A program made the position numbers and the translations under genes. The notes beneath the pieces are model-generated. The model was not told where the DNA came from and made no database searches. It saw only the letters and a program-made list of their open reading frames with translations. Positions 13,722 to 19,762 of a stretch of 55,389 nucleotides of DNA are shown piece after piece; positions within the stretch are counted from its first letter, which is position 1, and each line of letters starts with the position of its first letter. Origin of the DNA: a virus (taxonomy: Duplodnaviria > Caudoviricetes); IMG/VR virus record IMGVR_UViG_3300046811_000055, positions 1 through 55,389 of that record. The stretch is one strand, 5' to 3'.

Positions 13722-14144
13722 ATGGGCAGGCATCACGCACGGCGGAACTACGGACACCCCGCTGTCCTCGGGGGAGCGGCTGTCCTCGTCGTCCTCGTCA
13801 GCGGGGTGTCCGGTTACACCTACGTGACTCCCGATCCCCCGGCGGTACGCTCGGAGCGTCCGGCCCTGCTGATTCCAGCGGCAGCGGCCGGACAGTTCAG
13901 CACCAGCGCGGCAGAGGCGGCTCGGCCAGCAGCGGTGCGGACTAAGAGGCCCCGTCCGGCCGGATCGCCCTCCGCCCCCGGACGGGGCCTCACCCCGTCC
14001 CGGACGTCGAAGCCCTCCGCCCGACCCGTGCCGAAGCCCTCGCTCGTGCACGCCGCGGTGGTCGCCTCGCCGACGCCAGCGCCTCACCCTTCCCCGAGTG
14101 CGGTACCGAGCTCTCCCGCGTGCGAGTGGAGGTGGCACCAGTGA
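13722..14144 (+). CDS. Membrane-anchored Pro/Ser-rich protein
   Basis: MGRHH start, one TM helix, low-complexity tail; GTGA-coupled to traB. Confidence 0.6.
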   Translation: MGRHHARRNYGHPAVLGGAAVLVVLVSGVSGYTYVTPDPPAVRSERPALLIPAAAAGQFSTSAAEAARPAAVRTKRPRPAGSPSAPGRGLTPSRTSKPSARPVPKPSLVHAAVVASPTPAPHPSPSAVPSSPACEWRWHQ

Positions 14145-16327
14145 GCCGCAGGAAAGACAGCAAGCACAGCGAGACCAAGACGCCGGCCGCGCACAACCAC
14201 CCGCGCCACAAGATCCATGCCTACTGGCCCCCGTGGCTCGCGGGTCCGCTCGCAGTCGGTCTCGGCGACCTCGGTCACTGGCTCTGGGGCCGGACCCTCC
14301 CGGCGGCGGCCATCGTCCCGCTCGTCCTTGTCCTGTCCACGGTCGGGCTGTCCGCGCTGACCCATCGGTACGCCAGTCCCCGGAACAATGTCCAGCAGTG
14401 GCATGCTGTCCTGTCCGTCGCTGTCCTCGGACTGTCCCTGTCCGCTGTCCAGATGTTCGGGACAGGATGGCCCCCGAACGCACTCGGACAGTCCGTCCTG
14501 TTCCTGTCCGCTGTCCTCGCGCTGTCCTGGAACATCCGCCGGTTCGAGGTTGTCCGCGGCGGAGGACAGGACGAGCACGGACAGAGCAGCGCCGAAGAGG
14601 ACTGGCACGGGCTGAAGAAGCCCCGATCGATGAAGGTCGTTTCGACCGACGACAAGCAGACCACCACCAAGGTCAAGCTCGCTGCGGGCCAGACCGCCGA
14701 AGAGGTGGAGAAGATCCTTCGCTCGATGGGCAGCGATCTTGGCACCGTGACCAACGGCGTCCGCGTGGTCGACGGCGAGCGTGAGGGCGACGTCGAGATC
14801 ACCGCGATCTGGGAGCAGCCGCTCACCGAGGCGACCGGGTGGGAAGGCCCGAGCCACATCGGGGGCAGCATCGCCGATCCGATCTCGCTCGGCATGAACG
14901 AGCAGAGTGCCGACGTGATCCTCCGCATGGCCGGGGACTACAGCACGGGCATCGCCCCCGGCCACGTCGCCGTGGTCGGGATGCCCCGCACCGGCAAGGG
15001 GATCTGCCTGCTCGTCATCTGGGCCAACCTGCGCGCTCGCCGTGACGTCTACCCCGTGATCAACGATGCGGCCAAGGGCGAGCAGATGCTGATGTTCCTC
15101 CGCCCCGGAATGCCCAGGGAAAAGGCGTGGATCGACACCACCGTGACGGGCGCGAAGACGCAGGCCACGGCGGTCATGAACGCCATCGACAAGCGCAACA
15201 AGGCCCTCGGTGAGGGTGGCTATTCGAGCTGGACGCCCGAGGCCTTCAGCAAGGGCGTCATGTGGAAGGGCCAGCGCATCCACATGCCCGCCCTCGTCTT
15301 CCACGTAGAGGAGTTCGCACCCATCGGCATCGCCAGCCCCGGTCTCTTCACCAAGATCGCCGAGCAGGGCCTGTCCGCGGGGATCTTCCTCATCACGTCC
15401 TTGCAGCGTGCGAGCCATGACCGCTTCCCGACCAGCCTGCGCAGCGTGATCGGTAACGGCATCTGCTACGGCGCGTTCAGCGACGTAGACGTCAGCTTTG
15501 CCCTCCCCGATGACGCCGTTGCCGGTGGCGCCAGTCCCGCCAAGTGGGGGCAGAAGTTCCCCGGCAGGGCCATGGCCAGCTTGAACGGTCAGCCTGACGG
15601 CATGGACCGCATCCCGTTCAAGACGCACTACGCCTCAAGTCAGGACGAGTTTGAGACCTACATGAAGGAGATGATGGCCTACCTCCAGCCCCTGGCTCCC
15701 GAGCTCGACCCGTGCACCGCCGAAGCGTTCGGCCAGCCCTACCAGGACTACCTCGCCGGCGAACTGATAGGGCCGGACCCGAAGGCATCACCGAAACGCC
15801 CCGGCCGGAACCCGGTTCGGCCTGACGAGGATGACGAGAGAAGCAGCATCGAAGAGGAGGAGGACGACATACCTGATGACGACGACGACCCGAACGAGGC
15901 TCACTACGTGAAGCGACCCCACCCCGAGGACTGCGACCCCACTGGTATCGACCCGCGCGCCCCGTTGCCCGAATGGGAGGGCCCGGAGATCGACCTTGCC
16001 CCCCCGGCCACTCCCGGCAAGCAGCGCCGAGACCTCAGTCCGCAGGAAAAGCGCGAGCTCTTCCGCGAGATCCTCCAGCGCCTCGCCGACGAGAAGGTCA
16101 CCGAGGTCCGCACGGGCAAGCTGATGGACATCTGGTACGAGGAACTCGGCCAGCCCAAGGCGCGCCAGGAGCCCACCGTCGCCCGCCTGATCAACGACGC
16201 TGCGGCTGAGGATCTGGAGGACGGCAAGCCCAACGACCTGCTCGGCACGCTCGACCGAGGCCCCCGTGGCCTTTACTACATCAAGCTCACCCGACGCGTG
16301 GCCGCCATGAACGGCAACCACTCGTGA
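14141..16327 (+). CDS. traB: TraB-like FtsK/SpoIIIE conjugative DNA translocase
   Basis: N-terminal TM helices, Walker A GMPRTGKG, Walker B LVFHVEE, SAGIFLITSLQRA motif, acidic linker and C-terminal wHTH-like domain, as in actinomycete plasmid TraB. Confidence 0.8.
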   Translation: MSRRKDSKHSETKTPAAHNHPRHKIHAYWPPWLAGPLAVGLGDLGHWLWGRTLPAAAIVPLVLVLSTVGLSALTHRYASPRNNVQQWHAVLSVAVLGLSLSAVQMFGTGWPPNALGQSVLFLSAVLALSWNIRRFEVVRGGGQDEHGQSSAEEDWHGLKKPRSMKVVSTDDKQTTTKVKLAAGQTAEEVEKILRSMGSDLGTVTNGVRVVDGEREGDVEITAIWEQPLTEATGWEGPSHIGGSIADPISLGMNEQSADVILRMAGDYSTGIAPGHVAVVGMPRTGKGICLLVIWANLRARRDVYPVINDAAKGEQMLMFLRPGMPREKAWIDTTVTGAKTQATAVMNAIDKRNKALGEGGYSSWTPEAFSKGVMWKGQRIHMPALVFHVEEFAPIGIASPGLFTKIAEQGLSAGIFLITSLQRASHDRFPTSLRSVIGNGICYGAFSDVDVSFALPDDAVAGGASPAKWGQKFPGRAMASLNGQPDGMDRIPFKTHYASSQDEFETYMKEMMAYLQPLAPELDPCTAEAFGQPYQDYLAGELIGPDPKASPKRPGRNPVRPDEDDERSSIEEEEDDIPDDDDDPNEAHYVKRPHPEDCDPTGIDPRAPLPEWEGPEIDLAPPATPGKQRRDLSPQEKRELFREILQRLADEKVTEVRTGKLMDIWYEELGQPKARQEPTVARLINDAAAEDLEDGKPNDLLGTLDRGPRGLYYIKLTRRVAAMNGNHS

Positions 16328-16521
16328 CCAAGCGCGAGGCGGCCATCGTCATGGCCTATACGGGCGTTGCTCTCGGAGACTTTCAGACCTTCCACGAGTA
16401 CGCCGAAGAGGTGCTCGGCCGTCCGGTCTGGACGCATCAATTCGGCGATCAGGCCGTGGCCGACGAACTGAGGGCGGCTAGTCGGGCGGACTTCCTCGCC
16501 CTTCAGGTTCACAATGCGTAA
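16324..16521 (+). CDS. Small hypothetical protein
   Basis: AYTGV..FHEYAEEVLGRPVWTHQ; GTGA coupling. Confidence 0.6.
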   Translation: MTKREAAIVMAYTGVALGDFQTFHEYAEEVLGRPVWTHQFGDQAVADELRAASRADFLALQVHNA

Positions 16522-16525
16522 CCGC

Positions 16526-18658: not shown

Positions 18659-19356
18659 GATCGCGCCGCCTTCAGTTCTCGGGTCAGGTCCGCAGCGGCC
18701 TGAGTGCTGATCCTGTAGCCCTGCTCCTTCAGCTTCTCCACCAGCGACGCCCGGTTGAGTTTGTCCCCGAGTTCCTCAGCGATCTCGCGGGCAGCGGACA
18801 ACCGGGCGTCGCTGTCCTGTGCGGGGACAGGCTTGCGGACAGGCATCGGGCGGACAAAGCCGTTTGTCCTCGGGTTGTCCTCGGGGACAACGGACGGGAC
18901 GGGCTTGTCCTCCGGCATGATCGCCGGACCGACCTGAATCGTCTTGCGGACAGGCTTGGGGACAGCGACCGGAGCGGGCTTGTCCTCTGTCCGCGCCGGA
19001 CGGGACAGGACGAAGGTCGCCACGATCATCGCTCCGTCGATCGCGAGCGGGTAGAGGACAGCGGACACGTCCGACTCCCCGTAGCTCTTGGCCAGAGTCG
19101 AGATGTGGTCATAGGAGATCGCGAAGCAGAGGAACGCCACGACGCCCGTCGTCACCCGGATCCACCAGCGCCCGTCCTGGGCGGCCACGTGGAATGCGAT
19201 GAACAGGAGGACGGGAACGACCGCACTGAGGGCCTTGGCTCCCGGGTTCTGGTGCGCGTGCGCGTAGTTGGCAGCAACCGTGGCCAACGTGCCAGCGCCG
19301 AGGAGCAGGTACGCCATGCCTCGCCCGCTGAAGAGCTTGCCCAGTTTCGCCCTCAT
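18655..19356 (-). CDS. DUF2637 / SpdA-like membrane protein with C-terminal HTH-like domain
   Basis: Four TM helices, AISYDH...LYPLAIDG motif, Pro-rich linker, helical C-terminus. Confidence 0.7.
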   Translation of the reverse strand: MRAKLGKLFSGRGMAYLLLGAGTLATVAANYAHAHQNPGAKALSAVVPVLLFIAFHVAAQDGRWWIRVTTGVVAFLCFAISYDHISTLAKSYGESDVSAVLYPLAIDGAMIVATFVLSRPARTEDKPAPVAVPKPVRKTIQVGPAIMPEDKPVPSVVPEDNPRTNGFVRPMPVRKPVPAQDSDARLSAAREIAEELGDKLNRASLVEKLKEQGYRISTQAAADLTRELKAARS

Positions 19357-19637
19357 GACTCACGCCCGTAGTCGTCACAGATACTCGCGTGCCCGTTAAC
19401 CCCACCGCAGAGCGGGCATGCGGGGGAGCCGAGATGGTTGGCCCCGTTCGGGTCCTCGCCGCACTCAACGCATCGGGTCGGGTCCGAAACGCGCACCTTC
19501 GCTCGGTGCACTCCCGGAGCGATCACCGTGTACCCCAGCTCCCGCAGAGCCGCCGCATACTCGTCCGCCTTGCGCTCAAGGAACTTCATGCGTCGAACCT
19601 GGTTCGCCTTGGCCGTCCGCTCCTGCGGCGTGGTCAT
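19353..19637 (-). CDS. Hypothetical Zn-finger protein
   Basis: CVEC..H and CPLC..H..C. Confidence 0.55.
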   Translation of the reverse strand: MTTPQERTAKANQVRRMKFLERKADEYAAALRELGYTVIAPGVHRAKVRVSDPTRCVECGEDPNGANHLGSPACPLCGGVNGHASICDDYGRES

Positions 19638-19762
19638 CGCTCGATCGCCCGGTAGAGGTTACGGATGGCGTAGCCAGCCATGTAGAGGAGCGTCACGAGC
19701 GCCTCGAACAGCCGGATGAGCCAACGGTTAATTGCGCTGTGAATGTTCCGCATCGTCTCCAT
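19634..19762 (-). CDS. Small leaderless membrane peptide (42 aa)
   Basis: METMRNIH...; ATG 7 nt after TACAAT. Confidence 0.5.
   Translation of the reverse strand: METMRNIHSAINRWLIRLFEALVTLLYMAGYAIRNLYRAIER

Follow-up and report, generated by a model that had tools for sequence, protein, structure and literature searches.

A conjugative tailed plasmid-phage of Streptomyces, pZL12/phiZL12, was reportedly described by Zhong et al. in 2010, in J Bacteriol 192:3747. Excerpts of two published accounts give this element a tra locus, transfer requiring the tra gene and two of its neighbours (PMC3583192), as well as phage-particle genes and ParAB (PMC4487206). In pCQ4 (NC_019307.1, 84.8 kb, circular), traA-traB lie approximately 3 kb upstream of the terminase, portal, capsid and tail genes, and ParB, an AAA ATPase and a tyrosine recombinase are also encoded. 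PhiNon1, a 59,257-bp plasmid-phage of Nonomuraea, is described in an excerpt of its report as occurring in a circular form and also inserted at the 3' end of a tRNA-Val gene (PMC5431353). In actinomycete plasmids and in the integrative, conjugative elements of actinomycetes (AICEs), TraB pumps unprocessed double-stranded DNA (dsDNA) through the cell envelope. The idea of a plasmid-phage of the conjugation type is therefore not new (pZL12, pCQ4); what is new in the DNA analysed here is an independent phage lineage with a TraB clade and a regulatory design of its own. This DNA, referred to as the window, is the entire IMG/VR virus record IMGVR_UViG_3300046811_000055 (55,389 bases, classed as 'linear' for want of end repeats, CheckV completeness 62%), and the subject of this report is a plus-strand operon encoding a TraB-like protein among the genes of a tailed phage. 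The reading preferred here, in which TraB would drive the movement of phage DNA from cell to cell in some form, is given a probability of about 0.5.

The identity of the TraB-like protein was assessed by profile searches. The NCBIfam model NF041214 (plasmid_TraB) was matched with an E-value of 1e-91 and 308.4 bits, residues 30-675 aligning to positions 4-600 of the 639 in the model, and phrog_24831 was matched with an E-value of 1.8e-50. As the NF041214 score lies under the equivalog cut-off of 800 bits, a shortfall counted among the opposing points below, the model was calibrated on reference proteins: pCQ4 TraB scored 847.7 bits, and values of 312 bits were obtained for the deposited 'traB protein' of the linear plasmid pFRL2, 273 bits for the copy in phage locus L002 and, confined to the motor region, 48 bits for a chromosomal FtsK. 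The same FtsK scored 488 bits on the FtsK model and also matched the EssC and EccC models, whereas the window protein does not; its match to EccCb had an E-value of 0.092, and Pfam FtsK_SpoIIIE was matched neither by the protein nor in the six frames at E<=10. Because the near full-length TraB match clearly exceeds the similarity to FtsK, EssC and EccC, the product is, judged by these profiles, a TraB-like translocase in the wide sense, outside the narrow pSN22/pJV1-type equivalog. An earlier note on this DNA had read the FtsK-like gene as a TraB, and these scores, together with the tree described below, agree with a TraB-like protein rather than FtsK or EccC. Identity to plasmid TraBs is 25-30%. 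A HMMER search of 1.84 billion representatives returned 441 matches at E<=1e-3 (94 at E<=1e-30), with identities graded from 69% through 44-36% down to about 30%; the best 150 of the 441 are 371-833 amino acids (aa) long, mostly 600-800 aa.

The protein has an intact Walker A (GMPRTGKG), an intact Walker B (VFHVEEF) and an intact QR motif, and in the profile of its family these align to the FtsK structures 2iuu and 2ius. This profile matches the FtsK motor structures 2iuu, 2ius and 2iut (E-values of 4e-12 to 1e-11) as well as EssC 4nh0 (6e-10). When 52 phage and plasmid sequences were aligned, no variation was seen at G287, K293 (Walker A), D316, K319, Q322, W371, E398 (Walker B), S419, G421, S427, Q429 or G482; at least 90% of the sequences also conserve E397 and R430, and the unusual GKG end of Walker A recurs in named Streptomyces TraBs. 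Hydrophobic segments at residues ~47-75 and 88-108 of the 728-aa form, located with a Kyte-Doolittle script, are predicted to be N-terminal membrane helices; the N-terminus aligns with those of plasmid TraBs, including a conserved SWNIR motif, and the C-terminal 100 residues, conserved in four phage loci, align with plasmid TraB C-termini. The gene begins with a GTG codon that is preceded by GGAGG and shares the sequence GTGA with the stop codon at the end of the upstream open reading frame (ORF).

The age of the association between this gene and the phage was examined by comparison with related loci. The closest TraB homologues are 17 metagenome proteins with 61-71% identity, followed by a gap to the Streptomyces TraBs at 26-30%. 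L001, an IMG/VR locus from another sample, is syntenic with the window across the early genes, the entire module and the tail genes (identity of 64% for TraB, 79% for the endolysin and 88% for the tail), the record behind it ends in a TerL 88% identical to that of the window, and L004 has the same gene order, upstream genes included. In a more distant group (L007, L008 and the single contig that appears as L002, L003 and L006), the TraBs are 38-42% identical and are likewise set among phage genes, including those for an endolysin, a DUF7620 protein, a peptidase, a tape measure protein and a major tail protein. The corresponding values for L002 are 38% for TraB, 45% for the endolysin and 40% for the tape measure protein, so that TraB divergence tracks the divergence of the phage core proteins. 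A phylogeny built with FastTree from 185 rows across 662 columns, with a single FtsK as the root, placed 18 close rows in a window clade (support 100), sister to L002, L008 and three unlabelled rows; the resulting 23-row phage clade (support 100) holds all phage-borne copies except pCQ4. Among the nearest non-phage relatives, no IMG/VR locus was obtained for two proteins, and a cluster look-up returned unnamed metagenome proteins only.

Pieces of the window were found with zero differences in soil and rhizosphere sequencing runs of three studies, including runs X2 and X3 from other studies; one run may be the source sample. A Logan contig of 26,593 nt bridges position 1588 to beyond 20000, although this contig may derive from the source sample and is in that case not independent. 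Synteny in other records, monophyly and tracking divergence therefore make a chimera or a recent AICE insertion very unlikely, and by these comparisons the TraB module is an old, vertically associated part of the phage lineage. A chimeric assembly had been named in the earlier note as grounds for abandoning its proposal, but the gene order shared with L001 and L004 and the Logan contig across the junctions speak otherwise.

The operon is the sole sizeable plus-strand block of the window (13722-18411). Its starts and stops overlap along its length, as in translational coupling, and it separates the early genes from those for lysis and tail, running on the strand that carries none of the lytic genes. 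The earlier note had remarked that this block with its membrane proteins stands where a lysogeny module normally sits, and the layout confirms it. Upstream of the first gene, the palindrome TGCCAAANTTTGGCA occurs in two copies, the only ones in the whole window, against 0.05 expected by chance, and it is found at the same position upstream of traB in L001, L004 and L005, the three close relatives that contain that region. A block of approximately 120 bp around the palindromes is conserved in an alignment of four upstream regions, and a GGACAGGACAGG run directly precedes the ribosome-binding site of the first operon gene. In its sequence, the region looks like a repressor-controlled promoter similar to the traB promoters of plasmids. 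The same divergent region also contains a perfect 17-nt inverted repeat (TTGAAAACTGAATCCCG), the arms of which (13326-13342 and 13527-13543) are 184 nt apart.

Among the neighbours of traB, the TraA-like gene follows it in all four phage loci compared (the window, L001, L002 and L008). Its product scored 19.9 bits on the NF041213 plasmid_TraA model against a cut-off of 80 bits and is regarded as a remote resemblance; the model was matched at E<=0.1 by three of the four phage homologues, and BLASTP of the window protein against pCQ4 TraA gave no similarity (E 10). The TraA-like gene proposed in the earlier note is thus present beside traB in four loci, although its family match is weak. The protein of the first operon gene is 52% identical over 133 aa in L001, and no Pfam, PHROG, NCBIfam or PADLOC family was matched by it or by the 104-aa soluble protein further downstream. 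The YdjM-like protein is 87% identical in L001, where the copy also matches YdjM. The MerR/HTH_17-type protein at the end of the operon (HTH, helix-turn-helix), 73% identical in L001 and a match to the PADLOC mad1 HTH (E 4.9e-8), is inferred to be a candidate regulator. Searches by tblastn covered 50,697 deposited phage records, a set in which records close to the window may not be included. With DUF7736 as the query, 81 phage records were found (37 of Streptomyces phages) and just three plasmid records, none of them actinobacterial; the DUF7736 gene was rejected as a transfer gene, being a common phage family not found in actinomycete plasmids by tblastn. No PADLOC defence family besides a generic HTH was matched by any of the 15 proteins of the module.

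A second, minus-strand operon begins at approximately 19763-19786, extends down to 18655 and converges on the TraB operon. Its DUF2637 protein combines membrane helices with a Pro-rich linker and, at the C-terminus, a helical domain, and is 74% identical in L001, where the copy matches DUF2637 as well; tblastn against the phage records returned no match, and Thoma et al. 2015 (PMC4447253) do not use the term 'DUF2637'. The earlier note had listed a convergent DUF2637/Spd-like gene and several small membrane proteins. The DUF2637 assignment holds (30.1 bits, cut-off 22.8), as do small membrane proteins at 13722-14144, 16976-17254, 17565-18053 and 19634-19786 by a hydropathy script; the likeness of the small membrane proteins to Spd proteins gained no support from profiles, as stated below. 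The ACGTCA array that contains the promoter-like site of this operon is conserved with its flanks in L001 (11002-11024).

In the mechanism proposed, the operon would be derepressed, upon which a TraB ring would assemble in the membrane after the published pSVH1 TraB model. The C-terminal domain of TraB would dock on a repeat-bearing site of the phage DNA, which would then be pumped as dsDNA into a neighbouring compartment of the hypha or into a cell in contact with it. The small membrane proteins, together with the DUF2637 protein, may help the DNA across wall and membrane in the way that Spd proteins act for plasmids, and the outcome would be capsid-independent spread alongside virions.

Several observations weigh against this reading, in addition to the missed NF041214 cut-off. 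The phage is uncultured and is known here from sequence alone. The 23-row phage clade is nested in an 84-row clade (support 95) without any named protein, while all 12 named Streptomyces TraBs, pCQ4 and pFRL2 lie apart in another, 92-row clade (support 96). Each of the two is distant from FtsK, so that the separation from FtsK anticipated by the earlier note is present and the grouping with named TraBs is not; its label 'Streptomyces-type' was likewise not sustained, given this position and TerL and endolysin relatives in phages of Rhodococcus, Arthrobacter, Gordonia and Mycobacterium. The hosts of these closest relatives (Rhodococcus, Gordonia, Mycobacterium, Arthrobacter) are not all mycelial. 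Of the proposed architecture of membrane helices, ATPase and winged helix-turn-helix, the first two are seen and the third is putative: when the C-terminal 100 aa were compared by hhalign with a single FtsK gamma domain, the probability was 0.2%, which is no match, and a profile match to the CooA HTH was weak (E 0.057). No convincing clt site was found in the window. Words resembling GGACAGGAC number 40 against 22.7 expected, 14 of them in the module, and cluster at 13693-14572 and 18814-19011; however, most of them fall within coding sequence and can be accounted for by Leu-Ser and Pro-Val codons. The (ACGTCA)x5 array at 19780-19810 is a further clt candidate, but it overlaps the promoter-like site. 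DUF2637 was not matched among 25 ORFs scanned from the distant phage relatives L002 and L008, and no profile links the small membrane proteins of the module to Spd proteins. Finally, the L002 contig occurs in IMG/VR, in a Joint Genome Institute (JGI) metagenome and inside a metagenome-assembled genome labelled Terriglobales (Acidobacteriota); this binning is probably wrong, or else the host range of the phage group is wider than the actinobacteria.

The form in which the DNA would persist between transfers divides the alternatives. In the proposal of the earlier note, a non-integrating prophage would be kept as an autonomous plasmid, a conjugative phage-plasmid moving both by virions and by TraB-driven hyphal conjugation. 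No integrase or ParA had been visible to that note, and none was found here: Phage_integrase, Resolvase and AAA_31 (ParA-type) were not matched in six frames of the 55-kb contig, nor was Phage_integrase in either of the two related virus records searched (G001 and G003). The block is in the position of a lysogeny module, on the opposite strand and behind conserved operators, the genome has replication genes of its own (primase-polymerase and DnaN-like clamp), and pZL12 and pCQ4 show that such elements exist. However, the three records are fragments (CheckV completeness of 62%, 41% and 72%), so that missing genes may lie off the contigs; with a contig 62% complete, absence from it therefore does not establish absence from the phage. 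Family scans of the contig found no plasmid replication initiator or partition gene pair, whereas pCQ4 has ParB and an AAA ATPase, and no repressor was identified. The ParB-like protein (phrog_2159, E 8.6e-70, no Pfam match) adjoins a 452-aa PAPS_reduct/DUF3440 protein and was rejected as a partition protein on account of this pairing, the two genes (49119-51511) presumably being an IbrA/IbrB-type pair rather than parAB. For lack of initiator and partition genes, the claim that the prophage persists as a plasmid was not upheld, and we consider a phage-plasmid unlikely.

The tRNA-like fragment behind the late terminator, which resembles an attP remnant and to that extent disfavours a phage-plasmid, would instead fit an integrating temperate phage with its integrase in the missing part of the genome, the excised circle being moved by TraB as in AICEs such as pSAM2. 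It is possibly a remnant of attP or the 3' terminus of a structured RNA. The fragment lies at the usual attP position and its counterpart in L001 (~11095-11130, GTGGG TTCGAAT CCCAC CCGCCTT G) has a lineage-specific stem that differs by compensatory changes; yet ARAGORN recognised no full tRNA in the window, L001, L002 or L008, Rfam gave no tRNA match at E<=1, and no loose end of a Logan contig was found at the site among the loose ends listed. An integrase normally adjoins attP, and none is present up to 19 kb leftward or 35 kb rightward of the fragment. The completeness of 62% leaves room for one, and PhiNon1, circular and integrated at tRNA-Val, offers a precedent in the excerpt of its report (PMC5431353). 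The contig carries, in the absence of an integrase, a protein of the phiC31 gp3/VG64 type (46665-47282) that PHROGs names a recombination directionality factor (RDF); such a gp3-like protein is no proof of a serine integrase. Integration is accordingly rated as distinctly unlikely. The resident form may be a plasmid, an integrated prophage or a genome that only replicates lytically.

Two further explanations would dispense with transfer of the phage DNA. The unregulated tra genes of Streptomyces plasmids are lethal (kil phenotype), and this would fit tight operator control of an operon with another role, such as superinfection exclusion, kil-like shut-down or lysis timing, mobilisation of host DNA or membrane remodelling. 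Many large phages have FtsK-like genes without an assigned role (141 records matched by pCQ4 TraB), and the YdjM-like and DUF7736 genes are not known as transfer genes. Nevertheless, the TraB architecture is conserved over its full length with a C-terminal region that aligns with plasmid TraBs, each of the four phage loci retains the TraA-like neighbour, and no PADLOC defence family besides a generic HTH was found in the module, so that another role appears improbable. Least probable by far is an artefact or passenger, that is, a chimeric assembly or a recent, decaying AICE or plasmid fragment without a role in the phage. The contig is metagenomic, and AICEs and phages share hosts; against this stand the common gene order in L001 and L004, the Logan contig (perhaps of the same sample), the pieces in X2 and X3, the block's GC (guanine-cytosine) content like that of its surroundings, TraB divergence that tracks the core, monophyletic phage copies, the lack of AICE-type int, xis and rep genes, and invariant motor residues. 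Beyond TraB-driven movement itself, the wider proposition that a whole clade of uncultured actinobacterial siphoviruses swapped an integrase-based lysogeny module for a vertically inherited, operator-controlled TraB machine, routinely travelling as naked dsDNA from one hyphal compartment or touching cell to the next, is put forward tentatively and as somewhat unlikely.

Table 1. Features annotated in the window, in order of coordinates.
Feature	Position	Strand	Basis or remark
Early gene, primase-polymerase	1823-3247	-	
Early gene, C5-methylase fragment	4882-5601	-	
Early gene, Erf	5872-6609	-	
Early gene, exonuclease	7029-7838	-	
Early gene, RusA	9032-9403	-	
Regulatory region between leftward early genes and rightward TraB operon, 420 bp	13302-13721		Palindromes, inverted repeat, GGACAGGACAGG run
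Operator-like palindromes TGCCAAAATTTGGCA / TGCCAAAGTTTGGCA	13594-13608 / 13675-13689		81 bp apart; second ~30 bp before first start codon
Membrane-anchored Pro/Ala/Ser-rich protein, 140 aa, first operon gene	13722-14144	+	One hydrophobic segment; stop overlaps traB start
TraB-like membrane-anchored FtsK-superfamily dsDNA translocase, 728 aa	14141-16327	+	NF041214, phrog_24831, motifs, tree
DUF7736 small protein, coupled to traB	16324-16521	+	Pfam E 3.7e-20
Remote TraA-like protein, 110 aa	16644-16976	+	NF041213 E 6e-4, 19.9 bits
Small protein, 92 aa, two predicted membrane helices	16976-17254	+	Hydropathy script; start overlaps preceding stop; 36% identical in L001
Small soluble protein, 104 aa	17254-17568	+	Good third-position GC
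YdjM-like integral membrane protein, 162 aa	17565-18053	+	Pfam YdjM E 5.5e-10, 39.4 bits (cut-off 29)
MerR/HTH_17-type DNA-binding protein, last operon gene	18127-18411	+	Pfam MerR E 2.3e-7, HTH_17 E 1.6e-5
DUF2637 membrane protein, 233 aa, converges on TraB operon	18655-19356	-	Pfam E 5.3e-7, 30.1 bits (cut-off 22.8)
Cys-rich (CxxC ... CxxC) protein, 94 aa	19353-19637	-	51% identical in L001; no family above threshold (Pfam, NCBIfam)
One-helix membrane protein, first gene of DUF2637 operon	19634-19786	-	Hydropathy script; likely start ATG at 19763
Promoter-like site TTGACG-18 nt-TACAAT inside tandem (ACGTCA)x5 array, facing DUF2637 operon	19770-19810	-	10/12 matches; TRF score 53
Intrinsic-terminator-like hairpin with T tail, end of late (tail and lysis) unit	19830-19859	-	11 pairs, 10 G-C; conserved in L001
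tRNA-like T-arm and acceptor 3' strand (GTCAG TTCAAAT CTGAC CCGCCTT G)	19868-19905	-	Read from sequence, between hairpin and upstream gene
Lysis region, GH25 endolysin	20942-21886	-	
Lysis region, holin	22077-22382	-	
Lysis region, peptidase-like protein	22892-23734	-	
Tail proteins	24437-29116	-	Pfam/PHROG scans
Tape measure	29113-32244	-	Pfam/PHROG scans
Head-tail adaptor	34981-35823	-	Pfam/PHROG scans
HK97-type capsid	40648-42171	-	Pfam/PHROG scans
S78 protease	42111-42905	-	Pfam/PHROG scans
Portal	42902-44392	-	Pfam/PHROG scans
TerL	44813-46309	-	Pfam/PHROG scans
RNA-ligase-like protein	upstream of TerL	-	
gp3/VG64-type protein (Mycobacterium phage VG64 / phiC31 gp3 family)	46665-47282	-	Pfam E 3.4e-45; PHROGs name: recombination directionality factor
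PAPS_reduct/DUF3440 and ParB-like pair	49119-51511 (ParB-like 50810-51511)	-	
DnaN-like clamp	51508-52647	-	

Please refer to Table 1 for the coordinates of the phage genes, nearly all of which are on the minus strand. Virion, packaging and lysis genes are all present (TerL, portal, protease, capsid, adaptor, tape measure, tail, holin and GH25 endolysin), and by this gene content the window represents all or most of the genome of an uncultured siphovirus that would infect a soil actinobacterium. Among 1,808 matching phage records, TerL reaches no more than 39% identity, the best matches being to phages of Rhodococcus, Arthrobacter, Corynebacterium, Gordonia and Mycobacterium, and the GH25 domain matched 56 Mycobacterium and four Gordonia phage records at ~31-34% identity. 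As the best matches of both proteins are to actinobacterial phages, the host is taken to be an actinobacterium. The GC content of the window is 61-71%, that of the TraB block resembling its flanks. No RNA dataset is among the sequencing runs listed as holding window pieces, and the Logan contig at the left end of the window stops at base 17, with no extension past that end.

Several features outside the module were also recorded. The ORF of the C5 cytosine methylase (239 aa) covers only positions 90-161 of the 324 in the Pfam model and may be truncated or split. A minus-strand gene of the head-tail region (35820-37100), for which no PHROG or Pfam family was matched, contains approximately 400 aa of 18-20-residue Ala/Gly/Ser/Thr repeats (…GSATMAGAGALSAA…) and gives rise to the window's largest families of DNA repeats. 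A palindromic element of 35 nt (TGAGGGGTGGACAGGTGGACAGATGTCCACCCCTC) is present in two copies, 84 nt apart (1672-1825), upstream of the primase-polymerase gene; just to the left of these copies, at 1497-1587, two sequence variants occur in run X1 with depths of 15 and 49, and the depth of this run falls from 73 to 49 to the left of ~1500.

If TraB-driven movement were true, some soil viruses would have two routes of transmission, by particles and by direct pumping of DNA from cell to cell. This would be a bacterial counterpart of the movement proteins of plant viruses and a route around receptor-based resistance. Models of phage spread, host range and resistance in mycelial bacteria would change, the boundary between phages, plasmids and AICEs would shift, and an operon for dsDNA transfer, compact, self-contained and equipped with an operator of its own, would be at hand as a tool. 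The value of the finding is limited in that the principle was already out for pZL12 in 2010, that phage and host are uncultured and that the case is made at the level of sequence.

Comparison with deposited phages was carried out at the level of both DNA and protein. Positions 13000-20500 gave no blastn match to phage records, and the window TraB gave no tblastn match to them at E<=1e-5; the survey of phage genomes for traB that the earlier note had suggested thus yielded no full-length TraB homologue among the 50,697 deposited records. With pCQ4 TraB as the query, 141 phage records were found (122 of Bacillus phages), none covering at least 80% of the query. The FtsK-like translocases of cultured phages (Gilgamesh gp10, SPO1-like Bacillus phages) resemble the window protein in being phage-encoded ATPases of the FtsK superfamily, but their matches cover no more than 61% of a plasmid TraB, with 24-27% identity. 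The best match to pCQ4 TraB is the 'FtsK-like DNA translocase' of the cultured Streptomyces phage Gilgamesh (MN234216.1, 129 kb; 7400-8689), which aligns to residues 71-479 at 26% identity. A chromosomal TraB-like match in Nonomuraea has only TraB in common with the window, is situated 7 kb from a tRNA-Tyr gene and is probably an AICE rather than PhiNon1. In the literature, supplements aside, no paper on TraB in phages was found beyond those on the named plasmid-phages.

The module resembles the TraB/clt/Spd systems of Streptomyces plasmids (pSVH1, pIJ101, pSN22/pJV1; Thoma et al. 2015, PMC4447253) in its membrane-anchored FtsK-like ATPase with a putative C-terminal DNA-recognition region and in its coupled operon of small membrane proteins, with upstream repeats or palindromes at which the plasmids exert repressor control; in the plasmid pFRL2, a DUF2637 gene directly adjoins traB. 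It differs from them in that the carrier is a virus, TraB identity is 25-30% and clt is represented by candidates only; moreover, the window has no rolling-circle or theta replicon and no GntR-type TraR/KorA, small MerR/HTH_17 regulators being the only ones seen. With the AICEs (pSAM2, SLP1, pMEA300), as characterised in excerpts of te Poele et al. 2008 (PMC2440964), it has in common an FtsK-like Tra, actinobacterial hosts and a possible attachment site at a tRNA 3' end. However, no int, xis, RepSA-type rep or Nudix (pif) gene was found in the window, and the element, at 55 kb or more with full virion and lysis modules, exceeds the 9-24 kb of AICEs.

The closest likeness is to pZL12 and pCQ4, each a tailed-phage genome that also bears traA-traB of the actinomycete dsDNA transfer type. 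Compared with pCQ4, the backbone is different: of the proteins called in the window, just two match it at E<=1e-4, TraB (29% identity) and a peptidase-like protein. The ParB, AAA ATPase and tyrosine recombinase of pCQ4 are not on this contig, and traA precedes traB in pCQ4, whereas the TraA-like gene follows it in the window. The TraB of pCQ4 is canonical (848 bits, in the clade of named proteins), in contrast to that of the window (308 bits, in a separate clade). From these different TraB clades and unrelated backbones, tailed phages seem to have recruited TraB at least twice; because independent TraB clades sit on two unrelated phage backbones, the sequences also suggest that the combination of TraB and phage was selected rather than accidental.

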